A stretch of 64,000 bases of DNA from Escherichia coli (GTDB taxonomy: Bacteria; Pseudomonadota; Gammaproteobacteria; Enterobacterales; Enterobacteriaceae): the NCBI RefSeq assembly GCF_016903815.1, contig NZ_CP069973.1. One strand, written 5' to 3'. The notes below the pieces were generated by a model. That model did not search any database. It was given only the letters and a program-made list of their open reading frames with translations, and was not told the origin of the DNA. Both the position numbers and the translations under genes were made by a program. Positions 3,864 through 57,132 of this stretch are shown one piece after another. Each line of letters opens with the position of its first letter. The stretch's first letter is position 1.

Positions 3864-4448
3864 CTATCCCATCAGCGGGTTTTTCCCTTCCCGACGTAAC
3901 ATCTGACACAGCGCGATTAGCGGTAAACCAACCAGCGTGTTAGGATCACGCCCCTCTAAACGCTCAAACAGCGTAATGCCAAATCCTTCACTCTTAAAGC
4001 TACCCGCGCAGTGCAGGGGATGCTCTTTACGCACGTAATTATCAATCTCCGCCTCGCTCAGGTGACGGAAATGGACGTCAAAAGGCTCCACTTCTGTTTG
4101 TAGATGCCCATTCGCCGAATTAAACAACGCCAGTCCAGTATAGAAGGTGACGATATTGCCGCTGGCTTTGCGTAATTGCAGACGGGCATTTTCTTCCGTT
4201 AACGGTTTACCGGTGATTTCGCCATCAAGAACACATACCTGGTCTGAACCAATAATTAAATGATCCGGATAACGTGACGCCAGAGATTGCGCTTTTTCTT
4301 GTGCCAGTCGAAGCACCAACTGTCGCGGTGATTCGTCGCTGCGTGGGGTTTCGTCGACCTCTGGTGCTGCACATTCAAAAGAGATTTGCAGTTTTTCCAG
4401 AAGAGCGCGACGCCAGGGCGAGGTGGAGGCTAAAATAAGTTTAGGCAT
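3864..4448 (-). CDS. yceF: Maf-like nucleotide pyrophosphatase YceF
   Basis: ORF 3864-4487; start placed at internal Met ([14 protein letters not shown]) giving 194 aa. Confidence 0.88.
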
Positions 4449-4634
4449 ATTTTTTTCCATCAGATATAGCGTATTGATGATAGCCATTTTAAACTATGCG
4501 CTTCGTTTTGCAGGTTGATGTTCGTTATCAGCACTGAACGAAAATAAAGCAGTAACCCGCAATGTGTGCGAATTATTGGCAAAAGGCAACCACAGGCTGC
4601 CTTTTTCTTTGACTCTATGACGTTACAAAGTTAA

Positions 4635-9761: not shown

Positions 9762-11033
<1,272 letters not shown>

Positions 11034-11054
11034 GTTGTCATTTCCCACCCTTAT

Positions 11055-11080
11055 AAAAGGTCCGCTTGCGGGCCTTTTTT
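11055..11080. terminator. Rho-independent (bidirectional-looking) terminator after fabF
   Basis: aaaaggtccgcttgcgggcctttttt: GC stem flanked by an A-run and a T-run. Confidence 0.6.
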
Positions 11081-11081
11081 C

Positions 11082-11794
11082 TTGTGCACAGAAAACCCCC
11101 AGCTAGGCTGGGGGTTCCGGAAAGCTTTCAGCTTTAAGCCAGTTATTAAAACCCCTTTTGATTTGTTAAAACACCTTGCGGTCTGGCAACTGCAAGTGTC
11201 AAACAAGAAATCAAAAGGGGGTCCCAATGGGGAACGAAAAGAGCTTAGCGCACACCCGATGGAACTGTAAATATCACATAGTTTTTGCGCCAAAATACCG
11301 AAGACAGGTGTTCTACAGAGAGAAGCGTAGAGCAATAGGCAGTATTTTGAGAAAGCTGTGTGAGTGGAAAAGTGTACGGATTCTGGAAGCTGAATGCTGT
11401 GCAGATCATATCCATATGCTTGTGGAGATCCCGCCCAAAATGAGCGTATCCGGCTTTATGGGATATCTGAAAGGGAAAAGCAGTCTGATGCTTTACGAGC
11501 AGTTTGGTGATTTGAAATTCAAATACAGGAACAGGGAGTTCTGGTGCAGAGGGTACTACGTCGATACGGTGGGTAAGAACACGGCGAAGATACAGGATTA
11601 CATAAAGCACCAGCTTGAAGAGGATAAAATGGGAGAGCAGTTATCGATTCCCTATCCGGGCAGCCCGTTTACGGGCCGTAAGTAACGAAGTTGGATGCAA
11701 ATGTCAGATCGTGTGCGCCTGTTAGGGCGCGGCTGGTAAGAGAGCCTTATAGGCGCATTTGAAAAACCTCCGGCTATGCCGGAGGATATTTATT
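11082..11794 (+). mobile_element. IS200-type insertion sequence, copy 1
   Basis: 713-bp block identical to 27980-28692; left-end hairpin cccccagctaggctggggg; single Y1 transposase gene; absent from this intergenic site in E. coli K-12 as I recall it. Confidence 0.9.
11227..11685 (+). CDS. tnpA: IS200/IS605-family Y1 (HUH) transposase TnpA
   Basis: 152 aa from internal Met with RBS aaaggggg; HUH motif HIHMLVEIPP; ORF-track 5' extension judged non-coding. Confidence 0.9.
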   Translation: MGNEKSLAHTRWNCKYHIVFAPKYRRQVFYREKRRAIGSILRKLCEWKSVRILEAECCADHIHMLVEIPPKMSVSGFMGYLKGKSSLMLYEQFGDLKFKYRNREFWCRGYYVDTVGKNTAKIQDYIKHQLEEDKMGEQLSIPYPGSPFTGRK

Positions 11795-11863
11795 AGCTTT
11801 TATTCTGACTTGTTCCGTAGTGAACATGCTGCCACACTAACAATTCTCTGATAAGGAGCCGGT

Positions 11864-12673
11864 ATGTTCTTAATTAACGGTCATAAGCAGGAATCGCTGG
11901 CAGTAAGCGATCGGGCAACGCAGTTTGGTGATGGTTGTTTTACCACCGCCAGAGTTATCGACGGTAAAGTCAGTTTGTTATCGGCGCATATCCAGCGACT
12001 ACAGGATGCTTGTCAGCGGTTGATGATTTCCTGTGACTTCTGGCCTCAGCTTGAACTAGAGATGAAAACGCTGGCAGCAGAACAGCAAAATGGTGTGCTG
12101 AAAGTGGTGATCAGTCGCGGTAGTGGCGGGCGAGGATACAGCACATTGAACAGCGGACCGGCAACGCGGATTCTCTCCGTTACGGTTTATCCCGCACATT
12201 ACGACCGTTTGCGTAACGAGGGGATGACGTTGGCGCTAAGCCCGGTGCGGCTGGGGCGCAATCCTCATCTTGCAGGTATTAAACATCTTAATCGGCTTGA
12301 GCAAGTATTGATCCGCTCTCATCTTGAGCAGACAAACGCTGATGAGGCGCTGGTCCTTGACAGCGAAGGGTGGGTTACGGAATGCTGTGCGGCTAATTTG
12401 TTCTGGCGGAAGGGCAACGTAGTTTATACGCCGCGACTGGATCAGGCAGGTGTTAACGGCATTATGCGACAATTCTGTATCCGTTTACTGGCACAATCCT
12501 CTTATCAGCTTGTCGAAGTGCAAGCCTCGCTGGAGGAGGCGTTGCAGGCAGATGAGATGGTTATTTGTAATGCGTTAATGCCAGTGATACCCGTACGTGC
12601 CTGTGGCGATGTCTCCTTTTCGTCAGCAACGTTATATGAATATTTAGCCCCACTTTGTGAGCGCCCGAATTAG
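11864..12673 (+). CDS. pabC: Aminodeoxychorismate lyase
   Basis: 269-aa class IV aminotransferase-fold ORF, conserved position after fabF. Confidence 0.9.
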
Positions 12674-12675
12674 TC

Positions 12676-13698
12676 ATGAAAAAAGTGTTATTGATTATCT
12701 TGTTATTGCTGGTGGTACTGGGTATCGCCGCTGGTGTGGGCGTCTGGAAGGTTCGCCATCTTGCCGACAGCAAATTGCTTATCAAAGAAGAGACGATATT
12801 TACCCTGAAGCCAGGGACCGGACGTCTGGCGCTCGGTGAACAGCTTTATGCCGATAAGATCATCAATCGCCCACGGGTTTTCCAATGGCTGCTGCGTATC
12901 GAACCGGATCTTTCTCACTTTAAAGCCGGGACTTACCGCTTTACACCGCAGATGACCGTGCGCGAGATGCTGAAATTGCTGGAAAGCGGTAAAGAAGCAC
13001 AGTTCCCTCTGCGACTGGTAGAAGGGATGCGTCTGAGCGATTACCTCAAGCAATTGCGTGAGGCCCCGTATATCAAGCACACGCTGAGCGACGATAAGTA
13101 CGCCACCGTAGCGCAGGCACTTGAACTGGAAAACCCGGAGTGGATTGAAGGTTGGTTCTGGCCAGACACCTGGATGTATACCGCCAATACCACCGATGTC
13201 GCGTTACTCAAGCGAGCGCACAAGAAAATGGTGAAAGCGGTCGATAGCGCCTGGGAAGGGCGTGCGGACGGTCTGCCCTATAAAGATAAAAACCAGCTGG
13301 TGACGATGGCATCAATTATCGAAAAAGAAACCGCCGTTGCCAGTGAACGCGATCAGGTTGCCTCGGTATTTATCAACCGGTTACGCATTGGTATGCGCCT
13401 GCAGACCGACCCGACCGTGATTTACGGGATGGGAGAGCGTTATAATGGCAAACTTTCTCGTGCAGACCTGGAAACGCCGACAGCGTATAACACCTATACC
13501 ATTACCGGTTTGCCGCCAGGTGCAATAGCTACGCCGGGGGCGGATTCGCTGAAGGCTGCTGCGCATCCGGCAAAAACGCCGTATCTCTATTTTGTGGCCG
13601 ATGGTAAAGGTGGTCACACGTTTAATACCAATCTTGCCAGTCATAACAAGTCTGTGCAGGATTATCTGAAAGTGCTTAAGGAAAAAAATGCGCAGTAA
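12676..13698 (+). CDS. mltG: Endolytic murein transglycosylase MltG (YceG)
   Basis: 340-aa ORF with N-terminal TM segment, YceG family. Confidence 0.9.
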
Positions 13699-14329
13699 GT
13701 ATATCGTCATTGAGGGGCTGGAAGGCGCAGGCAAAACTACCGCGCGTAACGTGGTGGTTGAGACGCTCGAGCAACTGGGTATCCGCGACATGGTTTTCAC
13801 TCGGGAACCTGGCGGTACGCAACTTGCCGAAAAGTTAAGAAGCCTGGTACTGGATATCAAATCGGTAGGCGATGAAGTCATTACCGATAAAGCCGAAGTT
13901 CTGATGTTTTATGCCGCGCGCGTTCAACTGGTAGAAACGGTCATCAAACCTGCGCTGGCTAACGGCACCTGGGTGATTGGCGATCGCCACGATCTCTCCA
14001 CTCAGGCGTATCAGGGCGGCGGACGTGGTATTGACCAACATATGCTGGCAACACTGCGTGATGCTGTTCTCGGGGATTTTCGCCCCGACTTAACGCTCTA
14101 TCTCGATGTTACCCCGGAAGTTGGCTTAAAACGCGCGCGTGCGCGCGGCGAGCTGGATCGTATTGAGCAAGAGTCTTTCGATTTCTTTAATCGCACCCGC
14201 GCCCGCTATCTGGAACTGGCAGCACAAGATAAAAGCATTCATACCATTGATGCCACCCAGCCGCTGGAGTCCGTGATGGATGCAATCCGCACTACCGTGA
14301 CCAATTGGGTGAAGGAGTTGGACGCATGA
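13688..14329 (+). CDS. tmk: Thymidylate kinase
   Basis: 213-aa ORF; P-loop [10 protein letters not shown]. Confidence 0.95.
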
Positions 14330-15330
14330 GATGGTATCCATGGTTACGACCTGATTTCGAAAAACTGGTAGCCAGCTATCAGGCCGGAAGAGGTCACCAT
14401 GCGCTGCTCATTCAGGCGTTACCGGGCATGGGCGATGATGCTTTAATCTACGCCCTGAGCCGTTATTTACTCTGCCAACAACCGCAGGGCCACAAAAGTT
14501 GCGGTCACTGTCGTGGATGTCAGTTGATGCAGGCTGGCACGCATCCCGATTATTACACCCTGGCTCCCGAAAAAGGGAAAAATACGCTGGGCATTGATGC
14601 GGTACGTGAGGTCACTGAAAAACTGAATGAGCACGCCCGCTTAGGTGGTGCGAAAGTTGTCTGGGTAACCGATGCTGCCTTACTGACCGACGCCGCGGCT
14701 AACGCATTGCTGAAAACGCTTGAAGAGCCACCAGCAGAAACCTGGTTTTTCCTGGCTACCCGCGAGCCTGAACGTTTACTGGCAACATTACGTAGTCGTT
14801 GTCGGTTACATTACCTTGCGCCGCCGCCGGAACAGTACGCCGTGACCTGGCTTTCACGCGAAGTGACAATGTCACAGGATGCATTACTTGCCGCATTGCG
14901 CTTAAGCGCCGGTTCGCCTGGCGCGGCACTGGCGTTGTTTCAGGGAGATAACTGGCAGGCTCGTGAAACATTGTGTCAGGCGTTGGCATATAGCGTGCCA
15001 TCGGGCGACTGGTATTCGCTGCTAGCGGCCCTTAATCATGAACAAGCTCCGGCGCGTTTACACTGGCTGGCAACGTTGCTGATGGATGCGCTAAAACGCC
15101 ATCATGGCGCTGCGCAGGTGACCAATGTTGATGTGCCGGGACTGGTCGTCGAACTGGCAAACCATCTTTCTCCCTCGCGCCTGCAGGCTATACTGGGGGA
15201 TGTTTGCCACATTCGTGAACAGTTAATGTCTGTCACAGGCATCAACCGCGAGCTTCTCATCACCGATCTTTTACTGCGTATTGAGCATTACCTGCAACCG
15301 GGCGTTGTGCTACCGGTTCCTCATCTTTAA
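14326..15330 (+). CDS. holB: DNA polymerase III delta' subunit
   Basis: Start at internal Met ([14 protein letters not shown]) overlapping tmk stop; 334 aa. Confidence 0.9.
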
Positions 15331-15340
15331 GAGAGACATC

Positions 15341-16138
15341 ATGTTTTTAGTCGACTCACACTGCCATCTCGATGGTCTGGATTATGAATCTTTGCATAAG
15401 GACGTGGATGACGTTCTGGCGAAAGCCGCCGCACGCGATGTGAAATTTTGTCTGGCAGTCGCCACAACATTACCAGGTTATTTACATATGCGGGATCTGG
15501 TAGGCGAACGTGACAACGTCGTATTTTCTTGTGGCGTGCATCCACTCAACCAGAATGATCCCTACGATGTAGAAGATTTACGCCGTCTGGCGGCAGAAGA
15601 GGGTGTTGTAGCGCTGGGTGAAACCGGTCTGGATTATTATTACACACCGGAAACTAAAGTACGTCAGCAAGAGTCCTTCATTCATCATATCCAGATTGGT
15701 CGTGAACTGAACAAGCCGGTTATCGTCCATACCCGTGACGCCCGCGCCGATACGCTGGCAATTCTGCGCGAAGAAAAAGTGACGGATTGCGGTGGCGTAC
15801 TACACTGTTTTACAGAGGACAGAGAAACGGCGGGTAAATTACTGGATCTCGGATTTTACATCTCCTTTTCCGGCATTGTGACCTTCCGTAATGCGGAGCA
15901 ACTGCGCGATGCTGCGCGTTATGTCCCCCTGGATCGGTTACTGGTAGAAACTGACTCACCTTACCTTGCACCGGTTCCGCATCGAGGAAAAGAGAATCAA
16001 CCTGCGATGGTTCGTGACGTTGCAGAATACATGGCTGTGTTGAAAGGTGTTGCCGTTGAAGAACTGGCGCAGGTAACCACCGATAACTTCGCCCGTCTGT
16101 TTCACATCGACGCTTCCCGCCTTCAATCCATCCGTTGA
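15341..16138 (+). CDS. ycfH: TatD-family metal-dependent DNase YcfH
   Basis: Start at [11 protein letters not shown] (His-rich metal motif); 265 aa. Confidence 0.88.
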
Positions 16139-16432
16139 ATGAGTTTTTTTAAAGCTCGTAATTAATGGCTAAAACGAGTAAAGTTCACCGCCGAAAATTG
16201 GGCGGTGAATAACCACGTTTGAAATATTGTGACATATGTTTTGTCAAAATGTGCAACTTCTCCAATGATCTGAAGTTGAAACGTGATAGCCGTCAAACAA
16301 ATTGGCACTGAATTATTTTACTCTGTGTAATAAATAAAGGGCGCTTAGATGCCCTGTACACGGCGAGGCTCTCCCCCCTTGCCACGCGTGAGAACGTAAA
16401 AAAAGCACCCATACTCAGGAGCACTCTCAATT

Positions 16433-17866
16433 ATGTTTAAGAATGCATTTGCTAACCTGCAAAAGGTCGGTAAATCGCTGATGCTGCCGGTATCCGTACT
16501 GCCTATCGCAGGTATTCTGCTGGGCGTCGGTTCCGCGAATTTCAGCTGGCTGCCCGCCGTTGTATCGCATGTTATGGCAGAAGCAGGCGGTTCCGTCTTT
16601 GCAAACATGCCACTGATTTTTGCGATCGGTGTCGCCCTCGGCTTTACCAATAACGATGGCGTATCCGCGCTGGCCGCAGTTGTTGCCTATGGCATCATGG
16701 TTAAAACCATGGCCGTGGTTGCGCCACTGGTACTGCATTTACCTGCTGAAGAAATCGCCTCTAAACACCTGGCGGATACTGGCGTACTCGGAGGGATTAT
16801 CTCCGGTGCGATTGCAGCGTATATGTTTAACCGTTTCTACCGTATTAAGCTGCCTGAGTATCTTGGCTTCTTTGCCGGTAAACGCTTTGTGCCGATCATT
16901 TCTGGCCTGGCTGCCATCTTTACTGGCGTTGTGCTGTCCTTCATTTGGCCGCCGATTGGTTCTGCAATCCAGACCTTCTCTCAGTGGGCTGCTTACCAGA
17001 ACCCGGTAGTTGCGTTTGGCATTTACGGTTTCATCGAACGTTGCCTGGTACCGTTTGGTCTGCACCACATCTGGAACGTACCTTTCCAGATGCAAATTGG
17101 TGAATACACCAACGCAGCAGGTCAGGTTTTCCACGGCGACATTCCGCGTTATATGGCGGGTGACCCGACTGCGGGTAAACTGTCTGGTGGCTTCCTGTTC
17201 AAAATGTACGGTCTGCCAGCTGCCGCAATTGCTATCTGGCACTCTGCTAAACCAGAAAACCGCGCGAAAGTGGGCGGTATTATGATCTCCGCGGCGCTGA
17301 CCTCGTTCCTGACCGGTATCACCGAGCCGATCGAGTTCTCCTTCATGTTCGTTGCGCCGATCCTGTACATCATCCACGCGATTCTGGCAGGCCTGGCATT
17401 CCCAATCTGTATTCTTCTGGGGATGCGTGACGGTACGTCGTTCTCGCACGGTCTGATCGACTTCATCGTTCTGTCTGGTAACAGCAGCAAACTGTGGCTG
17501 TTCCCGATCGTCGGTATCGGTTATGCGATTGTTTACTACACCATCTTCCGCGTGCTGATTAAAGCACTGGATCTGAAAACGCCGGGTCGTGAAGACGCGA
17601 CTGAAGATGCAAAAGCGACAGGTACCAGCGAAATGGCACCGGCTCTGGTTGCTGCATTTGGTGGTAAAGAAAACATTACTAACCTCGACGCATGTATTAC
17701 CCGTCTGCGCGTCAGCGTTGCTGATGTGTCTAAAGTGGATCAGGCTGGCCTGAAGAAACTGGGCGCAGCGGGCGTAGTGGTTGCTGGTTCTGGTGTTCAG
17801 GCGATTTTCGGTACTAAATCCGATAACCTGAAAACCGAGATGGATGAGTACATCCGTAACCACTAA
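16433..17866 (+). CDS. ptsG: PTS glucose-specific EIICB component
   Basis: 477-aa ORF: multi-pass membrane domain plus C-terminal IIB domain (CITRLR). Confidence 0.95.
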
Positions 17867-17888
17867 TCCGTAAGACGTTGGGGAGACT

Positions 17889-17915
17889 AAGGCAGCCGGA
17901 TGGCTGCCTTTTTTA
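17889..17915 (+). terminator. Rho-independent terminator after ptsG
   Basis: aaggcagccggatggctgcctttttt. Confidence 0.7.
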
Positions 17916-17925
17916 CAGGTGTTAT

Positions 17926-20115
17926 TCAGAATTGATACGTGCCGGTAATGCTGAAATTACGCGGTGCGCCGTAGACGATAGAACCTTCCACGTTGGTATC
18001 GTAGGTTTTGTCGAACAGGTTATTGACGTTCCCCTGTAACGAGAAGTTTTTCGTCACCTGGTAGCGGGTGAAGAGATCCACCAGCGCGTAGCTACCTTGC
18101 TCGGCGCGGAAGGTGCCATACGGTGTCACGGTGTCGGTATACACGCGATTTTGCCAGTTAACACCACCGCCGACCGTCAACTCTGGCATGACAGGCAACC
18201 GGTAGCTGGTGAACATTTTAACCGTGGTGCGTGGCAGATTAGGATTAACGGCGTTTCCTTCGTTATCCTCTGCAATATAGCGTGTTGCGCCAAACGTCAG
18301 CTGCCAGTTGTCGGTAATTGCGCCGTTGAGTTCAAATTCCACACCTTTACTGACTGTCCCATCCACCGCTTTATAGGCGGTTTCGCCGTTGCTGCCGGGG
18401 ATAGGTGTACCGGTGGACTGAGCGACATTATCCTGCTCAATACGGAAGATGGCTAACGTGGTGATCAGACGGCTATTCATCCAGTCCGATTTCAGACCCA
18501 GCTCGTAGTTGTTACCGGTGATTGGAGCCAGATATTTGCCTGAACTGTCACGATCATTTTGCGGCTGGAAAATAGAGGTATAGCTGGCGTAGGTCGACCA
18601 GTTGTCATTGATGTCAAACACCAGACCAGCATAAGGCGTGGTGTGGTTTTTCTCCATGCTGTAAGTCAGCGTATCAACCCGCCAGTTGGTATATCGCGCG
18701 CCGAGGATCAGATGCAGCGGATCGGCAAGGGTGACACGAGTGGCAGCATATAACGATTTCATATGTGTGGTATCGTCCTGCGCCAGGCTCTGTGGTGACC
18801 AGTCGGTTTGTGGGAAATTGCCATTAAAGTTGTAGAAACTGCCAATTTCATCCGGGAAGATGTTTGCCCATGAACTGAAGTAACGATTGTTTTGTTTGCT
18901 GTAACTGCCACCAAACATTAGATTGTGCTGACGACCAAACAATTCATAACTACCGTCAGCAAACAAATCCAGCGCATCAACTTTACGTTTGCCGCTGTTC
19001 CAACCGGTGCCGCCGACATAATCAAAGCCAGGTCCATAATTACTGTATGGCCCAACCAGCATACCATCCGCTTTATTTACATAGGCATCGACATACATCA
19101 TTTTACTGTCAAATTCGACTTCGGAGTGGGTGGCATTCAGTGTCGCTTGCCAGGTATCAGCAAACCGCTGCTTGAGGGTCATAAAGACCTTGTTGATCTC
19201 TTTATCGTTATACGCCCAGTCAGGTGCGGTACTGCGTGCGCGATCGTAACTGTTGCTGCTGCCATCAGTATTCCAGCGCGGTAAACCGCCCCAGGTTGGG
19301 TTATTAACATCAATGCGCTGATATTCGTAACCGGCTGAAAGCGTCGTAAGATCGCCTAAATCAGCATCGACAATGCCGGAGAAGAAGGTCTTTTCACTGT
19401 TGTAGCGGTCCAGCCATGAGTCGTTATTCTGGTAGCCACCGACAATTCGCGCGCGGAATTTACCATCTTCGGTGAGTGGGCTTTGTAAATCCGCCACATA
19501 CCGTTCTTTGTTCCAGCTACCGTATTCCGCCGAGACATCGCCTTTAAATTCACGACTGGTCGCGTGTTTTCGAACCATATTAATTGCCGCAGATGGATTA
19601 CCCGTCCCGGTCATGAGTCCTGTCGCGCCACGCACTACTTCTACGCGTTCAAACAGTGCCATATCAGAAAGTGCGTCGCCCAGATTCCAGCGCGATTCAA
19701 AATAGGTGGGGATACCATCAACCATATAGTTATCGATCTGGAATCCGCGGGAATAATAAAGAGCACGATCGGAATCCGCCTGACTTTTGCTGATCCCCAG
19801 CGTGTTTTCCATCACTTCGCCCAGCGTTTGCAACTGCTGATCTTCCATCCGCTGCTGGCTAACAATAGTGACCGACTGAGGAATATCACGTTGAGTCATC
19901 TGCATTTTGGTTCCTGCAGAAGTAGACGTTACGCTGTAATCATTTTCGCCATCATCTGGAGCTGTGGCTGAACCCTCAACAATCACCGTTTCTTCAGTGG
20001 CTGGTGCAGCAAAAGCGGCAGAAGGTAATAGTGCCAGTACAATGCAACCGGCAAGTAGTGACGGTTTGGTGATGGCTTGATATTGATTATCCCTGTTAAA
20101 TTGTGTTGAAAGCAT
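17926..20115 (-). CDS. fhuE: TonB-dependent ferric coprogen/rhodotorulic acid receptor
   Basis: 729-aa ORF with signal peptide, plug domain and C-terminal beta-barrel ending in aromatic residue. Confidence 0.9.
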   Translation of the reverse strand: MLSTQFNRDNQYQAITKPSLLAGCIVLALLPSAAFAAPATEETVIVEGSATAPDDGENDYSVTSTSAGTKMQMTQRDIPQSVTIVSQQRMEDQQLQTLGEVMENTLGISKSQADSDRALYYSRGFQIDNYMVDGIPTYFESRWNLGDALSDMALFERVEVVRGATGLMTGTGNPSAAINMVRKHATSREFKGDVSAEYGSWNKERYVADLQSPLTEDGKFRARIVGGYQNNDSWLDRYNSEKTFFSGIVDADLGDLTTLSAGYEYQRIDVNNPTWGGLPRWNTDGSSNSYDRARSTAPDWAYNDKEINKVFMTLKQRFADTWQATLNATHSEVEFDSKMMYVDAYVNKADGMLVGPYSNYGPGFDYVGGTGWNSGKRKVDALDLFADGSYELFGRQHNLMFGGSYSKQNNRYFSSWANIFPDEIGSFYNFNGNFPQTDWSPQSLAQDDTTHMKSLYAATRVTLADPLHLILGARYTNWRVDTLTYSMEKNHTTPYAGLVFDINDNWSTYASYTSIFQPQNDRDSSGKYLAPITGNNYELGLKSDWMNSRLITTLAIFRIEQDNVAQSTGTPIPGSNGETAYKAVDGTVSKGVEFELNGAITDNWQLTFGATRYIAEDNEGNAVNPNLPRTTVKMFTSYRLPVMPELTVGGGVNWQNRVYTDTVTPYGTFRAEQGSYALVDLFTRYQVTKNFSLQGNVNNLFDKTYDTNVEGSIVYGAPRNFSITGTYQF

Positions 20116-20448
20116 TTGAAATCTCTAGGTTTATGTTGTCGTCAGGCTCATGCCGGAGGAGGGTGATGAGCGGTTATATTTAGTGTGCGAATAATTTTGC
20201 ATGTAAATGCAAATGAGAAATATACGCATTCATATTTGACGTGTAAACCAAACAGAGAATGTCTTTTCAGCGCATTCGCAGGCAGAAATGGGAATAATGG
20301 CGATATATACGGCAGCAAAACGATTTTTTGCTTAAGAAATCGTGAGTTAAGGTTGAAAGAGCAGGTTTAACTCGACCATACTCTATACTCGCAGTGTGGC
20401 GCGGCGTAGCATGGCGCAACGCATGGCTATTTGAAAAAGGAAAATGTC

Positions 20449-20808
20449 GTGGCAGAAGAAACTATATTCAGCAAAATTATTCGTCGTGAGATCCCCTCCG
20501 ATATCGTCTACCAGGATGATCTGGTAACGGCGTTTCGCGATATTTCGCCGCAAGCGCCAACGCATATTCTGATCATTCCGAATATCCTCATTCCGACTGT
20601 GAACGACGTGTCTGCTGAGCATGAGCAGGCGCTGGGACGCATGATCACCGTAGCGGCAAAAATTGCTGAGCAAGAAGGTATTGCCGAAGATGGCTATCGT
20701 CTGATCATGAACACCAACCGCCACGGCGGACAAGAGGTTTACCACATCCATATGCACTTGTTGGGTGGCCGTCCGCTGGGACCAATGCTGGCGCATAAAG
20801 GTCTGTAA
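20449..20808 (+). CDS. hinT: HIT-family purine nucleoside phosphoramidase
   Basis: GTG start giving [16 protein letters not shown]...; histidine triad HIHMHLLGG; 119 aa. Confidence 0.9.
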
Positions 20809-20810
20809 CG

Positions 20811-21188
20811 ATGAGAAAAGGATGCTTTGGGCTGGTGTCTCTGGCGTTGTTAGTGCTGGTGGGCTGTCGTTCACATCCGGAAATTCCGGTGAATGATGAG
20901 CAATCGCTGGTGATGGAGTCATCTTTATTGGCTGCGGGCATCAGTGCAGAAAAGCCCGTCCTTTCGACGTCTGATATTCAACCTTCAGCATCCTCAACGC
21001 TTTATAACGAAAGGCAAGAACCCGTTACCGTTCATTATCGTTTTTACTGGTATGACGCCAGAGGGCTGGAGATGCATCCTCTGGAAAGGCCACGCAGCGT
21101 TACCATTCCCGCACATTCGGCGGTAACGCTGTACGGCAGCGCCAATTTTCTGGGGGCGCACAAAGTCAGACTTTATCTATATTTGTAA
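20811..21188 (+). CDS. ycfL: Lipoprotein YcfL
   Basis: 125-aa ORF with lipobox LVGC. Confidence 0.85.
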   Translation: MRKGCFGLVSLALLVLVGCRSHPEIPVNDEQSLVMESSLLAAGISAEKPVLSTSDIQPSASSTLYNERQEPVTVHYRFYWYDARGLEMHPLERPRSVTIPAHSAVTLYGSANFLGAHKVRLYLYL

Positions 21189-21201
21189 GGGGTGAATCTT
21201 G

Positions 21202-21823
21202 ATGACAAAAATGAGTCGCTACGCCTTGATTACCGCGCTGGCGATGTTTCTCGCCGGGTGTGTGGGGCAACGTGAACCTGCGCCGGTAGAAGAAGTGAAA
21301 CCAGCGCCGGAACAACCAGCCGAGCCACAACAGCCTGTCCCCACAGTGCCATCGGTGCCGACAATACCGCAGCAGCCAGGCCCAATTGAGCACGAAGATC
21401 AAACTGCACCGCCTGCGCCGCATATTCGCCATTATGACTGGAATGGCGCAATGCAGCCGATGGTCAGTAAGATGCTTGGGGCTGACGGCGTGACTGCGGG
21501 TAGCGTCCTGCTGGTTGATAGCGTTAACAACCGTACTAACGGTTCGCTGAATGCCGCAGAAGCGACCGAAACGCTGCGAAATGCGCTGGCTAATAACGGT
21601 AAATTTACCCTGGTTTCCGCCCAGCAGCTGTCGATGGCTAAGCAACAGTTAGGTTTGTCGCCGCAGGACAGTTTAGGCACCCGTAGTAAAGCCATAGGCA
21701 TTGCCCGCAATGTCGGCGCTCATTACGTGCTGTACTCCAGCGCCTCTGGCAACGTTAACGCTCCGACCCTACAAATGCAGCTGATGCTGGTGCAGACGGG
21801 CGAAATTATCTGGTCAGGTAAAG

Positions 21824-21843
<20 letters not shown>
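21202..21843 (+). CDS. lpoB: Outer-membrane lipoprotein activator of PBP1B
   Basis: Lipobox LAGC, Pro-rich linker, 213 aa. Confidence 0.88.
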
Positions 21844-23684
<1,841 letters not shown>

Positions 23685-23706
23685 CCCTGGCTTATGTGAG
23701 GAAGCG

Positions 23707-24249
23707 ATGATTATCTATTTACACGGTTTTGACTCTAACAGTCCGGGTAACCACGAGAAAGTCTTACAATTGCAGTTTATTGACCCGGATGTACGCTTGA
23801 TAAGCTACAGTACGCGGCATCCGAAACATGATATGCAGCATCTGCTTAAAGAAGTGGACAAAATGTTGCAACTGAACGTTGACGAGCGTCCGCTAATTTG
23901 CGGCGTTGGTCTGGGCGGATACTGGGCAGAACGGATTGGTTTTCTTTGCGACATCCGCCAGGTGATCTTCAACCCTAATTTGTTCCCTTATGAGAACATG
24001 GAAGGCAAGATTGATCGCCCGGAAGAGTATGCCGATATTGCCACTAAGTGTGTGACCAACTTCCGCGAAAAGAATCGCGATCGTTGCCTGGTGATTTTGT
24101 CGCGTAATGATGAAGCGCTTAACAGCCAGCGGACATCTGAAGAGTTGCATCATTATTACGAGATTGTCTGGGACGAAGAGCAGACGCACAAATTTAAGAA
24201 TATCTCCCCGCATTTGCAGCGCATTAAAGCGTTCAAAACCCTCGGGTAA
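23707..24249 (+). CDS. ycfP: UPF0227 esterase-like protein YcfP
   Basis: Start at [10 protein letters not shown]; 180 aa. Confidence 0.85.
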
Positions 24250-24254
24250 ATGCC

Positions 24255-24385
<131 letters not shown>

Positions 24386-24648
24386 CTCCATACACACCTC
24401 ACTCTATATCACTCTCACAAATTCGCTCAAATAATAAACAACAAACTCTGTTTTTTGATCTCACCCGGTAAAGTCGCCTATCTTTTCAGCAACAAAACTT
24501 GATTAACATCAATTTTGGTATGACCAATGCACCATTCATGTTATTCTCATTAGCGAAGAACATTTTCATTGCTGTAACCTGTTGTTAATTAAGAGCCATG
24601 TTAATAACCATTAATTAACAATTGGTTAATAAATTTAAGGGGGTCACG

Positions 24649-25953
24649 TTGACTACGCCATTGAAAAAAATTGTGATTGTCGGCGGCGGTGCTGGTGGGC
24701 TGGAAATGGCAACACAGCTGGGGCATAAGCTGGGACGCAAGAAAAAAGCCAAAATTACGCTGGTCGATCGTAACCACAGCCACCTGTGGAAACCGCTGCT
24801 GCACGAAGTAGCGACTGGCTCGCTTGATGAAGGCGTCGATGCGTTGAGCTATCTGGCCCATGCGCGCAATCATGGTTTCCAGTTCCAGCTGGGTTCCGTC
24901 ATTGATATTGATCGTGAAGCGAAAACAATCACTATTGCAGAACTGCGCGACGAGAAAGGTGAACTGCTGGTTCCGGAACGTAAAATCGCCTATGACACTC
25001 TGGTAATGGCGCTGGGTAGCACCTCTAACGATTTCAATACACCAGGTGTCAAAGAGAACTGCATTTTCCTCGATAACCCGCACCAGGCGCGTCGCTTCCA
25101 CCAGGAGATGCTGAATCTGTTCCTGAAATACTCCGCCAACCTGGGCGCGAATGGCAAAGTGAACATTGCGATTGTCGGTGGCGGCGCGACGGGTGTAGAA
25201 CTCTCCGCTGAATTGCACAACGCGGTCAAGCAACTGCACAGCTACGGCTATAAAGGTCTGACCAACGAAGCCCTGAACGTAACGCTGGTAGAAGCGGGCG
25301 AACGTATTTTGCCTGCATTACCGCCACGTATCTCTGCTGCGGCCCATAATGAGTTAACGAAACTTGGCGTTCGCGTGCTGACGCAAACCATGGTCACCAG
25401 TGCTGATGAAGGCGGCCTGCATACTAAAGATGGCGAATATATTGAGGCTGATCTGATGGTGTGGGCAGCCGGGATCAAAGCGCCAGACTTCCTGAAAGAT
25501 ATCGGTGGTCTTGAAACCAACCGTATCAACCAGCTGGTGGTGGAACCGACGCTGCAAACCACTCGCGATCCAGACATTTACGCTATTGGCGATTGCGCGT
25601 CATGCCCGCGTCCGGAAGGGGGCTTTGTTCCGCCGCGCGCTCAGGCTGCACACCAGATGGCAACTTGCGCAATGAACAACATTCTGGCGCAGATGAATGG
25701 TAAGCCGCTGAAAAATTATCAGTATAAAGATCACGGTTCTCTGGTATCGCTGTCGAACTTCTCCACCGTCGGTAGCCTGATGGGTAACCTGACGCGCGGC
25801 TCAATGATGATTGAAGGACGAATTGCGCGCTTTGTATACATCTCGCTATACAGAATGCATCAGATTGCGCTGCATGGTTACTTTAAAACCGGATTAATGA
25901 TGCTGGTGGGGAGTATTAACCGCGTTATCCGTCCACGTTTGAAGTTGCATTAA
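24649..25953 (+). CDS. ndh: Type II NADH:quinone oxidoreductase (NDH-2)
   Basis: TTG start after RBS aagggggt; two GxGxxG FAD/NAD motifs; 434 aa. Confidence 0.92.
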
Positions 25954-25959
25954 TCGGCT

Positions 25960-26055
<96 letters not shown>

Positions 26056-26179
26056 CCTTCAGACTCCTCCGAATCCCTAAGTATTTCCAGCCATTCCCGC
26101 GCTTTTCATCTTCTGTCTGATAGCTGCTTTTCTCCTTCGCTTGCATGATTGGCATAACAGCAAAGAAGGAGGTGTTCCC

Positions 26180-26719
26180 GTGAATAAATCAATGTTGGCG
26201 GGTATGGGGATTGGTGTCGCAGCTGCGTTGGGCGTAGCGGCAGTGGCCAGTCTGAACGTGTTTGAACGTGGCCCGCAATACGCTCAGGTTGTTTCTGCAA
26301 CCCCAATCAAGGAAACGGTTAAAACACCGCGTCAGGAGTGTCGCAACGTCACAGTGACCCATCGTCGACCGGTGCAGGATGAAAATCGCATTACCGGGTC
26401 GGTGCTCGGCGCTGTTGCTGGCGGCGTGATAGGGCATCAGTTTGGCGGTGGTCGCGGTAAAGATGTCGCCACTGTTGTGGGGGCGCTGGGAGGTGGCTAT
26501 GCCGGTAACCAGATCCAGGGCTCTCTCCAGGAAAGCGATACTTACACGACTACGCAACAGCGTTGTAAAACGGTGTATGACAAGTCAGAAAAAATGCTCG
26601 GTTATGATGTGACCTATAAGATTGGCGATCAGCAGGGCAAAATCCGCATGGATCGCGATCCGGGTACGCAGATCCCGCTAGATAGTAACGGGCAACTGAT
26701 TTTGAATAACAAAGTATAA
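26180..26719 (+). CDS. ycfJ: Gly-rich outer-membrane protein YcfJ
   Basis: GTG start after RBS aggagg; 179 aa. Confidence 0.85.
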   Translation: MNKSMLAGMGIGVAAALGVAAVASLNVFERGPQYAQVVSATPIKETVKTPRQECRNVTVTHRRPVQDENRITGSVLGAVAGGVIGHQFGGGRGKDVATVVGALGGGYAGNQIQGSLQESDTYTTTQQRCKTVYDKSEKMLGYDVTYKIGDQQGKIRMDRDPGTQIPLDSNGQLILNNKV

Positions 26720-26740
26720 CAAGGCTGTACTCTGCAATTT

Positions 26741-26775
26741 GGCCCCTCATTCGCTCAGGCTGAGGGGCTTTTTTT
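26741..26775. terminator. Bidirectional rho-independent terminator between ycfJ and comR
   Basis: ggcccctcattcgctcaggctgaggggcttttttt. Confidence 0.7.
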
Positions 26776-26780
26776 GCGAC

Positions 26781-27413
26781 TTATTTCACCAGTTCGGGCC
26801 ATAAACGCAAAGTCGTTCCGGCAATCTGCATCAGTTTTTCCAGCGATGCACCTTCGCGTGCGCTGATCGACATCCCCTGAATAATACAATTAAGGAATTC
26901 AGCCAGATGCGTCACGTCACAGTGGGTCGGGATTTCCCCGCGCGCTTGTCGTTGACATAAAAACTGCTGCAAAGTGCGCTCTTGCATCGCATGGCGTGAT
27001 TTCAGCGTATTGGCGATATCTCCGGAATCCGGGGAGAGGGTGGTGCAGTTGTTGATCATAAAGCAGCCAGCCGGGGTGTCTTTGCTGGTAAAGCAGTTGG
27101 CGACGGCAGCAAAATAGTCAGCCAGCGCAGACTCCACGCTTTTCTCTTCACAAAACAGCTGTGCTTCATGCTTAGCGGCAAAACGATCGATATAGCGGTC
27201 GAGTACGGCGCGAAATAACCCCTCTTTGTTGGTAAATTCCGCGTATAGCGTGGGCGCTTTGGCTCCGGTCGCTTCGACGAGGTCCGCAAGAGAAGTCGCT
27301 TCATAACCGTGCTGCCAGAACAATTTCATGGCCTTATCAAGCGCGGCATCCCTGTCGAACACTTTTGGGCGGCCACGGCTTTTTTTTACACATTGTGTTG
27401 AGTCAGTTGCCAT
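26781..27413 (-). CDS. comR: TetR-family repressor ComR (YcfQ)
   Basis: Start at MATDSTQCVKKSRGRPK; TetR-type HTH; 210 aa. Confidence 0.88.
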   Translation of the reverse strand: MATDSTQCVKKSRGRPKVFDRDAALDKAMKLFWQHGYEATSLADLVEATGAKAPTLYAEFTNKEGLFRAVLDRYIDRFAAKHEAQLFCEEKSVESALADYFAAVANCFTSKDTPAGCFMINNCTTLSPDSGDIANTLKSRHAMQERTLQQFLCQRQARGEIPTHCDVTHLAEFLNCIIQGMSISAREGASLEKLMQIAGTTLRLWPELVK

Positions 27414-27653
27414 GATGCCGTTGTACCTGGTGACTGTGATTGAAAGGTTATTATAAAAATAATCACCTCCGTTCACCAGTCCACAAACCATAAAAATAAT
27501 TGCTTTCTATTTAACTGAAATTTAAAGATTTTTAAATTAATTAATGATTGTTATAAAAAATATCTTGTATGTGATCCAGATCACATCTATCATTTAGTTA
27601 TCGATCGTTAAGTAATTGTTTGCGACGTCATTCATCTGCATAAGGCCACTATT

Positions 27654-27911
27654 ATGAAAAACGTAAAAACCCTCATCGCTGCGGCGATTTTAAGCTCCAT
27701 GTCATTTGCCAGCTTTGCGGCTGTCGAAGTTCAGTCAACGCCAGAAGGCCAACAAAAAGTCGGTACTATCAGTGCTAACGCGGGGACAAATCTGGGATCG
27801 CTGGAAGAGCAGCTGGCGCAAAAAGCGGATGAGATGGGCGCAAAATCATTCCGTATTACTTCTGTAACCGGTCCAAATACCCTCCATGGAACAGCAGTAA
27901 TTTATAAATAA
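27654..27911 (+). CDS. bhsA: Multiple stress resistance protein BhsA (YcfR)
   Basis: 85-aa ORF with signal peptide, YdgH/BhsA family. Confidence 0.9.
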   Translation: MKNVKTLIAAAILSSMSFASFAAVEVQSTPEGQQKVGTISANAGTNLGSLEEQLAQKADEMGAKSFRITSVTGPNTLHGTAVIYK

Positions 27912-27950
27912 GCATTAACCCTCATTAATGCCTGCTACTGCTGATTTTTT

Positions 27951-27981
27951 CCCCGCGACATGCCGTGTCGCGGGGATTTTT
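27951..27981 (+). terminator. Rho-independent terminator after bhsA
   Basis: ccccgcgacatgccgtgtcgcggggattttt; IS200 copy 2 begins in its T-tail. Confidence 0.7.
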
Positions 27982-28692
27982 GTGCACAGAAAACCCCCAG
28001 CTAGGCTGGGGGTTCCGGAAAGCTTTCAGCTTTAAGCCAGTTATTAAAACCCCTTTTGATTTGTTAAAACACCTTGCGGTCTGGCAACTGCAAGTGTCAA
28101 ACAAGAAATCAAAAGGGGGTCCCAATGGGGAACGAAAAGAGCTTAGCGCACACCCGATGGAACTGTAAATATCACATAGTTTTTGCGCCAAAATACCGAA
28201 GACAGGTGTTCTACAGAGAGAAGCGTAGAGCAATAGGCAGTATTTTGAGAAAGCTGTGTGAGTGGAAAAGTGTACGGATTCTGGAAGCTGAATGCTGTGC
28301 AGATCATATCCATATGCTTGTGGAGATCCCGCCCAAAATGAGCGTATCCGGCTTTATGGGATATCTGAAAGGGAAAAGCAGTCTGATGCTTTACGAGCAG
28401 TTTGGTGATTTGAAATTCAAATACAGGAACAGGGAGTTCTGGTGCAGAGGGTACTACGTCGATACGGTGGGTAAGAACACGGCGAAGATACAGGATTACA
28501 TAAAGCACCAGCTTGAAGAGGATAAAATGGGAGAGCAGTTATCGATTCCCTATCCGGGCAGCCCGTTTACGGGCCGTAAGTAACGAAGTTGGATGCAAAT
28601 GTCAGATCGTGTGCGCCTGTTAGGGCGCGGCTGGTAAGAGAGCCTTATAGGCGCATTTGAAAAACCTCCGGCTATGCCGGAGGATATTTATT
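27980..28692 (+). mobile_element. IS200-type insertion sequence, copy 2
   Basis: Identical to 11082-11794 by eye, same orientation. Confidence 0.9.
28125..28583 (+). CDS. tnpA: IS200/IS605-family Y1 transposase TnpA
   Basis: Same 152-aa protein as copy 1. Confidence 0.9.
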   Translation: MGNEKSLAHTRWNCKYHIVFAPKYRRQVFYREKRRAIGSILRKLCEWKSVRILEAECCADHIHMLVEIPPKMSVSGFMGYLKGKSSLMLYEQFGDLKFKYRNREFWCRGYYVDTVGKNTAKIQDYIKHQLEEDKMGEQLSIPYPGSPFTGRK

Positions 28693-43074: not shown

Positions 43075-44193
43075 TCAAATAACCAACTTAACCCATTCCT
43101 GACCTCGAGTATCGTTATAGCGATCGGTGGTTGCCTGGACTTTATGTCCTAGTAATGTTTTTGTATCGATACCCTGTGCACGGTACAGCCGTTCTGATAG
43201 AGAGCGTTGTTCATGAAATGTTGGCGGAGTTTTTCCTGCTGGTGGAATTATCCCAGCCAGATCCCGTGCTTTGGCAAAGTAGTCGCTCAGGTTGTCTTTA
43301 CTCATCGGCTTCGGTTGTTTCTGGTGCCGACTATGGATTAGATATGGACTTAATATTCTGTCTCGGCACCCATCAATAACTTCTTTTAACGTTATCCCAA
43401 TGGCATCACAGCGTAGTGTAAGCGGTAACGCCAGACGCATTCCGGTTTTTCCCTGGGTGATATGCAAGTGTTCGTTCCACACATCTGAAAAACGCATGTG
43501 GCAAATGTCATCACGGCGCTGACCAGTAACAATCGCAAGAAGCATTGCGTTACGGATAAAGTGTTTTTCAGGCGTTGCATTGTAAATTTTTTGCCAGTCT
43601 TCCATGGTGAGCCTGGCTCTGGTTACTTTAGGGATCGGTTTACGGGTAGCCTCCGGAGGATTCCATCCAGGAGGAACTTCCCCTGCATGCTGTGCTTCTT
43701 TATAAATATCAACCCATAATCCACGATTTACTCTCGCTGTGCTGACCATGTCTTTATCCAGCCACTCATCCAGTATTAATGCAAAGTCTCTTACTTCCAG
43801 TTCTTTCAATGGGTGGTTTCCCAGACGGGAAACCAGGTATGCAGCCATTCGAGTTTTTTCTTTGTGAGTTGTAGCTGCAATATCTCCATTTTTCAGTCGC
43901 GTGTCCTGTATTTTCAGATATCGATCAACCCATGCCTTTAATCTGATACCCCGACGTTTTGTTGCTGACGGACTTTCATCAATTTTGCGCATGAAATATT
44001 CAGCTTCTGCTGCAGCTATTCGCTGATTGGCTGTGGAAGCGATTTTTTCTGCCTTACCTTTGTCTGTTCCGAGTCCGTGAAATTTTCCAGTCACAGGATT
44101 TTTATACTGGTAGTAAACTCTGCCAGTTCTGCGATCAAACTTTTCGTAAAGACCGGCTACGTCAGTGCTGTTTTTTCGTGGCCTCGGTGACAT
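43075..44193 (-). CDS. int: Lambda-family tyrosine integrase
   Basis: 372 aa; C-terminus HEQRSLSERLY...LGHKVQATTDRYNDTRGQEW matches the lambda Int catalytic R-H-R-Y region. Confidence 0.92.
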   Translation of the reverse strand: MSPRPRKNSTDVAGLYEKFDRRTGRVYYQYKNPVTGKFHGLGTDKGKAEKIASTANQRIAAAEAEYFMRKIDESPSATKRRGIRLKAWVDRYLKIQDTRLKNGDIAATTHKEKTRMAAYLVSRLGNHPLKELEVRDFALILDEWLDKDMVSTARVNRGLWVDIYKEAQHAGEVPPGWNPPEATRKPIPKVTRARLTMEDWQKIYNATPEKHFIRNAMLLAIVTGQRRDDICHMRFSDVWNEHLHITQGKTGMRLALPLTLRCDAIGITLKEVIDGCRDRILSPYLIHSRHQKQPKPMSKDNLSDYFAKARDLAGIIPPAGKTPPTFHEQRSLSERLYRAQGIDTKTLLGHKVQATTDRYNDTRGQEWVKLVI

Positions 44194-47983: not shown

Positions 47984-48463
47984 AATGGCAGCCTCTTGGT
48001 TGAGTATTAATAACTCACCACCAAGGTTTTCCACGACCATAAGGGTGGTGAGGCGTACAGGGGTGGAAATACCGGTCAACCAAGAATCCGGCCAGCCTTG
48101 CAGCTGCCCTGCACGCCCCACCATAATCTGAATGTGGCTGTGCTTGACGCATAAAAAAACCGCCTGAGCGCGGTTATGCGCTTGATTGAATTCCGGGTTT
48201 CCACGCCCGGCACCCGTTTTATGAGGTGCAGGTGCACTATAATTCCACCCGTTCTGGTTTTCAATAGCTACATTCAACATTTTCTCTTACCTTTCATCAC
48301 CGAAGTGAACTTTGTTGATGCGGTGCCTGGTGCCTCCAGGTGACGTTAACCAGTTAACAATTAACGCCGGATACAGAGAATCCACCCATAACACTGTTTT
48401 TGGTTTTAACTGTTCCGCGTGCGCTTAGCCGCATTCACCGCATCACAAAATTCACTTTAAAAA

Positions 48464-48515
48464 GGGTGGCAGAGCAGTCACGGAGTAGAACTGATGCCAC
48501 CAAAGACTACACATG
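48464..48515 (-). ncRNA. dicF: DicF-like small RNA
   Basis: Minus-strand ggtggcatcagttctactccgtgactgctctgccaccc plus U-tail matches recalled DicF 3' two-thirds at about 34 of 38 nt; 5' end approximate. Confidence 0.6.
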
Positions 48516-56799: not shown

Positions 56800-56976
56800 A
56801 TAACTGCGGGTGCTTGAGGCTATCTGTCTCAGGCATGAACACCAAAAGGCAGATAGAGAAAAGCCCCAGTTAACATTACGCGTCCTGCAAGACGCTTAAC
56901 ATTAATCTGAGGCCATATCTATGCGACACATAGAGATTAGCCTCTTACGGACCGAAAGGTCAAGGAGAAGCAGGCT
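56800..56976. promoter_or_regulatory. hok mRNA leader with mok-like upstream ORF and expected antisense Sok region
   Basis: 19-codon upstream ORF (ATG 56921) whose TGA overlaps the hok ATG; hairpin gcgtcctgcaagacgc; Sok position inferred, not observed. Confidence 0.35.
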
Positions 56977-57132
56977 ATGAAGCAGCAAAAGGCGATGTTA
57001 ATCGCCCTGATCGTCATCTGTTTAACCGTCATAGTGACGGCACTGGTAACGAGGAAAGACCTCTGCGAGGTACGAATCCGAACCGGCCAGACGGAGGTCG
57101 CTGTCTTCACAGCTTACGAACCTGAGGAGTAA
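56977..57132 (+). CDS. hok: Hok/Gef-family type I toxin
   Basis: Hand translation MKQQKAMLIALIVICLTVIVTALVTRKDLCEVRIRTGQTEVAVFTAYEPEE (51 aa), essentially the HokD/RelF sequence as recalled. Confidence 0.85.
   Translation: MKQQKAMLIALIVICLTVIVTALVTRKDLCEVRIRTGQTEVAVFTAYEPEE

Follow-up and report, generated by a model that had tools for sequence, protein, structure and literature searches.

Two identical copies of an insertion sequence flank, in direct orientation, a 16-kb chromosomal segment of this Escherichia coli strain, which raises the question of whether the pair acts as a unit or arose from separate insertions, and, if the latter, what led the element to these two positions. Careful alignment of positions 11082-11794 and 27980-28692 of the window (the whole stretch of 64,000 nucleotides analyzed) gave 713 of 713 identical bases without gaps, with both copies on the + strand and a spacing of 16,898 bp, as the original prediction had proposed. 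The pair is the sole long repeat within the window. Comparison of filled with empty sites, with K-12 providing the empty site A and YDC107, a near-identical strain, the empty site B, defined the inserted DNA as 711 bp (GTGCAC...ATTTATT), located at 11084-11794 between the fabF terminator and pabC (copy A) and at 27982-28692 between the convergent bhsA and ldtC (copy B). The extra 2 bp of identity (11082-11083 and 27980-27981) are the target TT in the flank, which preceded the left end at all 10 distinct insertion sites sampled. Filled minus empty site equals exactly 711 bp, and because target and element both end in TT, the data would fit a 709-bp element with a duplicated 2-bp TT equally well. 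An assembly artefact was ruled out, as at least 29 independently assembled complete genomes contain the same 20 kb of the window at 100% identity. Very probably, the known element IS200C inserted twice, in separate events, into a phylogroup D, ST405-complex clone in which it has expanded.

The assignment to the IS200 family was borne out and could be narrowed to IS200C. The 713 bases are 100% identical to many RefSeq elements annotated as "IS200/IS605-like element IS200C", and it is on this annotation that the name rests. Each copy is complete, comprising a Y1/HUH transposase gene, a left-end terminator hairpin, a 5'UTR stem-loop and a right-end hairpin, all on the + strand. The 152-residue TnpA is encoded at 11227-11685 in copy A and by the same gene at 28125-28583 in copy B, with WP_000526135.1 annotated at both places; it carries the HUH motif H-I-H in ADHIHMLV and tyrosines in RGYYVDT, and it matched PF01797 (E = 3.8e-38) as well as the known structures of IS608 TnpA (2a6m, E = 3.9e-19) and ISDra2 TnpA (2xm3, E = 1.9e-16). 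tnpA is the single annotated coding sequence in the 711-bp insert, which has no tnpB; the other listed open reading frames overlap tnpA on either strand and are unannotated. In copy A, folding placed the left-end hairpin at 11094-11116 (element nt 11-33), preceded by an A-run on its 5' side, and it corresponds to the IS200 internal bidirectional terminator reported at nt 12-34 (PMC4513863) and serves as the subterminal hairpin. The tnpA 5'UTR stem-loop follows at 11152-11221 (element nt 69-138; fold z -5.55) and pairs with the Shine-Dalgarno region. Most of this stem-loop is enclosed in a match to Rfam STnc490 (RF01405) at 11094-11217, which scored 146 bits in each copy, the gathering score being 56. 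The IS200-type left-end regulatory region, with internal terminator, 5'UTR stem-loop and STnc490/art200, is thus present in agreement with PMC4513863. At the other end, the right-end subterminal hairpin CCTCCGGCTATGCCGGAGG (11767-11785, by folding) has AAAAA on its 5' side, and a 9-nt linker, ATATTTATT, joins it to the tip. The two ends, GTGCACAG... and ...ATTTATT, do not form inverted repeats, and the repeat search of the window reported no inverted repeat pair.

The direct orientation of the pair likewise has a ready account. GC skew on the + strand is positive along the window, the corresponding K-12 region lies at 1.15 Mb within the clockwise replichore, and both tnpA genes, lying on the + strand, point with the replication fork. 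A tnpA orientation bias with the fork has been reported for this family (PMC3971601). Since the family mechanism would fix tnpA along the fork, two copies on one replichore are expected in direct orientation, and there is no coincidence to explain.

We infer that the host is an E. coli clone of phylogroup D and the ST405 complex, the lineage being taken from strain names in papers: YDC107 is ST964, O102:H6, phylogroup D (PMC6035167), and an ST405 comparison includes WCHEC4533 and Z1002 (PMC9037040). Genomes of this clone carry IS200C at about 21 to 28 places, versus a median of 1 among genomes with any, and the E. coli average is 2.9 IS200 copies per genome (PMC4513863). The identity of the two copies had been taken as a sign of recent transposition. 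With 1,299 E. coli records holding copies that are at least 99% identical, this sign taken alone is weak; copy identity cannot date an insertion, whereas an empty-site comparison in close relatives can. YDC107 differs from the window at 1 base in 16,185, carries an identical copy A and has an empty site B. As judged from these two sequences, copy B was shown to be recent and to postdate the YDC107 split, and copy A to be older and to predate it, so the earlier dating holds for copy B only. There were also indirect signs of activity: site B is polymorphic within the clone, and the sister strain PEC1013 has a third copy.

The bracketed interval (11795-27979; 16,185 bp) belongs to the ordinary core chromosome, aligns colinearly with K-12 at 1.153-1.169 Mb, and contains pabC, mltG/yceG, tmk, holB, ycfH, ptsG, fhuE (- strand), hinT, ycfL, lpoB, thiK, nagZ, ycfP, ndh, ycfJ, comR (- strand) and bhsA. 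Three of these genes, tmk, holB and ptsG, had been named as essential; ptsG is not, and it was absent from the essential-gene lists in the literature looked up. The other two, tmk and holB, are essential (PMC11481867, PMC8510551) and lie between the copies, so that recombinational loss of the interval would, as originally noted, remove essential genes and should be lethal. Queries with synthetic junction sequences found neither the deletion junction nor the tandem-duplication junction in any of 5,426 complete E. coli genomes, 64 of which have both copies. Amplification, also raised originally, is possible in principle, but these genomes hold no duplication junction. It is therefore highly improbable that the pair works as a unit, be it a composite transposon or an amplification cassette for the interval. 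Direct repeats of 711 bp with 100% identity would be good RecA substrates, and E. coli offers well-documented cases of IS-flanked tandem amplification of resistance genes (PMC10940297). Yet no joint product of either kind was found, the interval is core genome, and IS200-family transposition uses one strand with element-specific left and right ends. The pair is without joint function and is a potential substrate for homologous recombination.

The distribution of the element was examined in the same 5,426 complete genomes. IS200C matched in 3,097 of them (57%), with a full-length copy in 2,063, and the exact sites recur in unrelated backgrounds with different variants, so that the proposal that IS200 presence is a lineage marker failed. 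A composite junction search located the site junctions at 310 places in 246 genomes, with site A filled in 221 and site B in 90. About 157 genomes were filled at A only, about 26 at B only and 64 at both; the B-only genomes rule out a nested history in which the 90 site-B genomes would form a younger subset of the 221 site-A genomes. Different IS variants fill the same two sites in backgrounds 0.8-1.6% diverged, and the variants group by genome rather than by site: copy A equals copy B in the window, the site-B copy of MB53 resembles the site-A copy of APEC, and the site-B copy of EC556 resembles both the site-A copy of OZ039874 and the two copies of 2017.17.01CC. The last strain has both sites filled by another variant and an extra T at the right junction of site A, although its near relative 510016 has a standard empty site A; MB53 has T6 instead of T5 at site B. 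Both sites thus appear homoplasic, having been struck independently in unrelated E. coli lineages, and 2017.17.01CC, unrelated to the window's strain, is on this comparison a case of independent gain of both copies.

Both insertions might instead go back to single ancient events, each copy then having been passed on vertically or having travelled with its flanks through homologous recombination; every empty site, including site B of YDC107, would be the product of precise excision, with no hot spots involved. Consistent with such a history, same-site copies differ between lineages at 4 to 11 of 711 bases (0.6-1.5%), similar to the divergence of their flanks (0.3-2.2%), and elements of the IS200/IS605 family excise precisely and reseal the donor (PMC5027513). 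Some of the shared occupancy could accordingly be old and vertical. As an account of the whole pattern we consider it unlikely, because the grouping of variants by genome and the differing junctions of 2017.17.01CC and MB53 speak against it, and site B, filled in only 90 of 5,426 genomes spread over at least four backgrounds, would require very many losses; moreover, IS200 transposes rarely (PMC4513863).

The sites themselves have a common structure. Copy A begins straight after the final TT of the fabF intrinsic terminator (11055-11083, + strand), a hairpin followed by TTTTTTCTT. Copy B lies in the bhsA/bhsB intrinsic terminator (27950-27981, + strand; 12-bp stem plus T-run, fold z -7.27), where the T8 of the empty site in YDC107 has become T5[IS]T3, leaving five Ts upstream; the bhsB sRNA of K-12 ends at the last T of the copy B target T-run. 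The third copy, in the sister strain PEC1013, is found at a hairpin, GCGCGACGAATTGCTGTCGCGC, followed by TTTTT (21853-21879, + strand) just past the lpoB stop codon and inside the 5' end of thiK, a site that is empty in the window. At 10 of 10 distinct sampled sites, a hairpin of -13 to -26 kcal/mol ends 2 to 7 nt before the left end, with a T-rich tail in between. As a control, an adjoining hairpin was present at 12% of the ends of runs of at least five Ts in the window; this control replaced an earlier one based on any TT-preceded position, of which 18% had an upstream hairpin.

These observations can be read in two ways. IS200C may target T-rich tetranucleotides only, the hairpin being a by-product of the T-runs at terminators and of selection elsewhere, with no mechanistic role. 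The target of IS608 is chosen by base pairing to a guide tetranucleotide and not by target structure (PMC3597680), most of the sampled sites are intergenic, where insertions are harmless, and IS200C has been described only as inserting in T-rich regions (PMC6963479). This reading is tentative and the less probable of the two: against it stand the hairpin frequency at control T-runs versus that at the insertion sites, the three sites that lack a T-run and still keep the hairpin (ATTATT at L015, TTTAATT at L016 and TTTGTT at L017), and the PEC1013 insertion, which disrupts thiK and nevertheless lies 3' of a hairpin plus T5. Adjacency to terminators could also reflect, in part, the survival of harmless insertions.

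The other reading, to which we give about an even chance of being correct, is that IS200C integration is aimed at a fixed short offset 3' of terminator-like hairpins, through mimicry of its right end and A-rich guide pairing. Certain terminators would then be recurrent hot spots, precise to the nucleotide, in unrelated lineages; the IS-bracketed 16-kb segment would have arisen independently at least twice, and the U-tail of the BhsB sRNA would have been clipped by copy B each time. By analogy with IS608 and ISDra2, the transposase would excise the top strand as a single-stranded circle and insert it on the 3' side of a short target in the lagging-strand template, and it would be this lagging-strand insertion that sets tnpA along the fork and yields direct orientation on one replichore. 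The A-runs 5' of both subterminal hairpins are probably guides for the T-rich cleavage sites, namely the target ending in TT and the element end TATT, and a terminator hairpin with its T-run may resemble the element's own right end, a hairpin with a 9-nt T-rich linker. We infer both the guide pairing with the cleavage sites and the right-end mimicry from the sequence and from IS608; together they would explain how the same two nucleotide positions could be struck independently in several lineages.

For the window itself these results matter little: the insertion sequence is a known one, the clinical E. coli clone that carries the pair is also known, and neither deletion nor amplification was in evidence. 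Beyond the window, independent recurrence makes IS200C junctions at sites A and B unsuitable alone as clonal markers. Furthermore, the order of hairpin, T-rich tail and left end at all sampled sites offers a simple, testable target rule for the IS200 subgroup. IS1541 insertions may likewise lie beside terminator-like hairpins, a point given no evidential weight here. In the accessible literature, targeting by this subgroup is given only as a T-rich preference or as a statistical association with terminators; terminator-like sequences have been reported upstream of IS200/IS605 elements (bioRxiv 10.1101/2025.07.22.666184).

Among known systems, IS608 of Helicobacter pylori and ISDra2 of Deinococcus radiodurans have homologous Y1/HUH TnpA proteins (E about 4e-19 and 2e-16) and are alike in having subterminal hairpins, a short right linker (9 nt in the window's element, 8 nt being typical), apparent insertion on the 3' side of a short target and an orientation that follows the fork (PMC3597680, PMC5027513). 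IS200C here differs from them in having no tnpB, a left linker of about 10 nt versus 15-16 nt, and a T-rich target ending in TT versus TTAC or TTGAT; in addition, a host hairpin always adjoins the target here, which is not a described requirement for IS608. IS200 of Salmonella enterica and IS1541 of Yersinia pestis share the architecture of the window's element: a length of about 707-711 bp, tnpA as the only gene, a bidirectional terminator hairpin at the left end (nt 12-34) and, at nt 69-138, a 5'UTR stem-loop that masks the Shine-Dalgarno sequence, together with the STnc490/art200 region (PMC4513863). Salmonella IS200, at 707 bp, is a different sequence variant from the 711-bp element of the window, and plasmid matches from Salmonella and Yersinia occurred only at lower identity. 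The RefSeq/PGAP IS200C of E. coli, in contrast, is the same element, with 100% nucleotide identity on many chromosomes and plasmids and the same transposase protein; relative to its other carriers, only the positions and the high copy number are specific to the window's clone, the element itself being without differences.

As determined by anchored base-by-base extension, 713 of 713 bases were identical between 11082-11794 (copy A) and 27980-28692 (copy B), which share a strand and are spaced 16,898 bp apart, so the coordinates and identity given in the original prediction were correct. Alignment of both stretches with 50 bp flank found perfect identity inside and unrelated DNA around, and a repeat scan of the entire window found no other long repeats. 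Numerous E. coli elements, on chromosomes and on plasmids, matched the 713 bases at 100% over the full length and are annotated as "IS200/IS605-like element IS200C family transposase"; the pair are real, correctly placed copies of a known insertion sequence. In K-12, both sites are empty. Empty site A in K-12 reads GGGCCTTTTTTCTT followed by AGC, and the filled one reads CTT, the element (GTGCAC...ATTTATT), then AGC. For site B, the empty reference was YDC107, which has 1 base different from the window over the 16,185-bp interval between the copies, and GGGGA-T8-ATCC there corresponds to GGGGA-T5-element-T3-ATCC in the window. These empty/filled comparisons indicated a gain of 711 bp at each site, the 713 bp being a 711-bp element plus the TT preceding its left end. 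Judged from these junctions, a 711-bp element without duplication is indistinguishable from one of 709 bp that duplicated 2 bp of target (TT).

The gene order, fabG-acpP-fabF-copy A-pabC-yceG-tmk-holB-ycfH-ptsG-fhuE-hinT-ycfL-lpoB-thiK-nagZ-ycfP-ndh-ycfJ-comR-bhsA-copy B-ldtC-mfd, is colinear with K-12 1.15-1.17 Mb. Upstream of the pair lie two ordinary core RNAs, the RNase E 5′UTR element (rne5; 2245-2581, − strand) and the SraB sRNA (4442-4610, + strand). Farther along, a lambdoid prophage directly follows potC and reaches the window end (about 43075-64000), with GC content falling to 0.47-0.48; potB and potA were not seen before the window end. It carries an integrase (about 43075-44193, − strand), excisionase, exonuclease, dicB, Rha, CI/Cro-like regulators, replication protein P, hokD, rem, RusA, Q, holin and lysozyme, and Rfam assigned C4, isrK and DicF (48041-48515, − strand), sok (56808-56979) and STnc100 (60621-60810) to it.

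No fewer than 29 complete E. coli chromosomes, the majority from human clinical isolates, shared the 20 kb around the pair at 100% identity. Both copies are present in WCHEC4533, WCHEC96200 and Z1002, which a published study set beside an ST405 isolate in a genome comparison (PMC9037040), and YDC107 is ST964, O102:H6, phylogroup D (PMC6035167). From strains named in papers rather than MLST, we infer that the host clone belongs to the ST405 complex. The clone carries 21-28 IS200C places per genome, compared with a median of 1 among E. coli genomes having any (maximum, 35) and a published average of 2.9 per E. coli genome (PMC4513863), a lineage-specific expansion, though IS200C is usually called nearly dormant. 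The identity of the copies had been taken as a sign of recent transposition. This holds for copy B, which is missing from the near-identical YDC107, but not for copy A, which is older because YDC107 also has it; identity alone is weak ground, copies with 99% identity or more being present in 1,299 records. Given that an IS200C match occurred in 3,097 of 5,426 genomes (full-length in 2,063), the presence of IS200C is not diagnostic of lineage, contrary to its proposed use as a marker.

It was also proposed that the interval holds the essential genes tmk, holB and ptsG; ptsG is not known to be essential. The claim stands for tmk and holB, both of which appear among the essential genes of Enterobacteriaceae (PMC11481867) and in an essential-gene CRISPRi library (PMC8510551). 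Synthetic junctions representing a deletion (fabF flank-IS-ldtC flank) or a tandem duplication (bhsA flank-IS-pabC flank) were searched in 5,426 complete genomes, and neither was found, coverage of either query being at most 77%, the single-junction value. No rearrangement between the copies was detected, and the pair is without joint function.

The sole mildly notable point is nucleotide-precise recurrence at terminators. Of the two junctions, the one beside fabF (site A) occurred in 221 genomes; 90 had the one beside bhsA (site B). A composite query of both 80-nt junctions (E below 1e-20) found 310 places in 246 genomes; therefore 64 genomes have both, about 157 A only and about 26 B only. 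In the A-only strains APEC O2-211, 2014C-3338 and 20Ec-P-124, the interval was 1.25% from the window and the IS had 6 differences, while the B-only strains 510016, EC556 and MB53 were 0.8-1.6% from the window, with IS variants having 11, 4 and 6 differences, respectively. The coprogen/rhodotorulic acid receptor gene fhuE carries a pseudogene annotation in two of these unrelated B-only strains, through an internal stop in 510016 (10004-12193 of comparison locus L003) and a frameshift in EC556 (L004 10225-12176); it is intact in the window.

The IS variants clustered per genome, not per site. Copies A and B of the window share one sequence, 5 of 6 changes in the MB53 site-B copy are common to the APEC site-A copy, and the EC556 site-B copy equals the variant at OZ039874 site A. 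This last variant fills both sites in 2017.17.01CC, an unrelated human faecal strain of 4.67 Mb (NZ_AP027822.1; L021 3144-3854 and 20043-20753), which is a close relative of 510016 and whose interval diverges from the window by 1.47%. An extra T stands at its site-A right junction, where 510016 has the standard empty site; MB53 has 6 Ts before the left end, versus 5. The other variant at both sites and the extra T indicate that the same bracketing pair arose at least twice. From these sequence comparisons, we read the same positions as probably filled by repeated independent insertion. A less likely alternative, with which the comparable extent of divergence in IS and flanks would fit, is old insertion followed by precise excision.

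Further sites were taken from contigs in which the identical transposase is encoded. Together with one in PEC1013 and the two of the window, 10 distinct sites were counted. Each of the 10 had a hairpin (−13 to −26 kcal/mol) in the folded 50 nt preceding the left end, terminating 2-7 nt from the element, and a flank ending in TT; among 261 ends of T runs of at least 5 in the window, the same test found such a hairpin at only 31 (12%). Most sites lie 3′ of a co-oriented gene's end, often between convergent genes. PEC1013, a member of the same clone as the window with 2 differences over 16 kb, carries a third IS200C (NZ_CP165737.1; L022 13230-13940) at window 21879/21880, after GCGCGACGAATTGCTGTCGCGC-TTTTT (window 21853-21880), inside thiK and just downstream of the lpoB stop; thiK there is annotated as truncated. 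This copy is a different variant from the clone's resident one, with changes at element positions 53, 290, 371 and 485. That this harmful insertion has the same anatomy argues for targeting, not survival alone, behind the pattern. IS200C has been noted in T-rich regions (PMC6963479), and the target pattern is already known in outline. Copy B sits inside the bhsA terminator T-run (window 27950-27981), leaving 5 Ts before GTGCAC where the empty site has 7-8, and the last T of this run is the 3′ end of the K-12 sRNA BhsB (L002 19304-19403). Copy B could thus lower termination efficiency or impair the Hfq-binding U-tail of this sRNA.

In IS608, which excises precisely and has a right linker of about 8 nt, a guide tetranucleotide lying 5′ of the foot of each hairpin recognises the cleavage sites by base pairing, and the element integrates into the lagging-strand template 3′ of its target (PMC3597680, PMC5027513). 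The hairpins of IS200C are each preceded by an A-run (CAGAAAA-hairpin and TTGAAAAA-hairpin), its right end is hairpin-ATATTTATT, and its targets are T-rich, ending in TT. Pairing of A-rich guides with T-rich cleavage sites would account for the target, and a terminator hairpin with its T-rich tail also resembles the element's own right end. GC skew of the + strand is positive across the whole window and both tnpA lie on that strand, so both elements are oriented with the replication fork, in line with published work on IS200 (PMC3971601); this would account for two copies on one replichore being in direct orientation. The sole ORF, tnpA (copy A, 11227-11685, + strand), encodes 152 aa (Pfam Y1_Tnp, E 3.8e-38) with the HUH motif ADHIHMLV and tyrosines in RGYYVDT, and its product matched the solved IS608 and ISDra2 transposases. 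An Rfam search placed STnc490, the IS200 5′UTR RNA, in both copies (11094-11217 and 27992-28115) on the + strand, sense to tnpA, whereas the literature has STnc490/art200 antisense to the tnpA 5′UTR; the Rfam model may represent the sense 5′UTR RNA. Folded as single-stranded DNA, the element ends gave a predicted left-end hairpin (element nt 11-33) and another at the right end, 9 nt short of the tip; a long stem-loop (nt 69-138) was predicted to cover the Shine-Dalgarno sequence. This anatomy of hairpins and 5′UTR stem-loop in IS200C is the same as that of Salmonella IS200 (PMC4513863).
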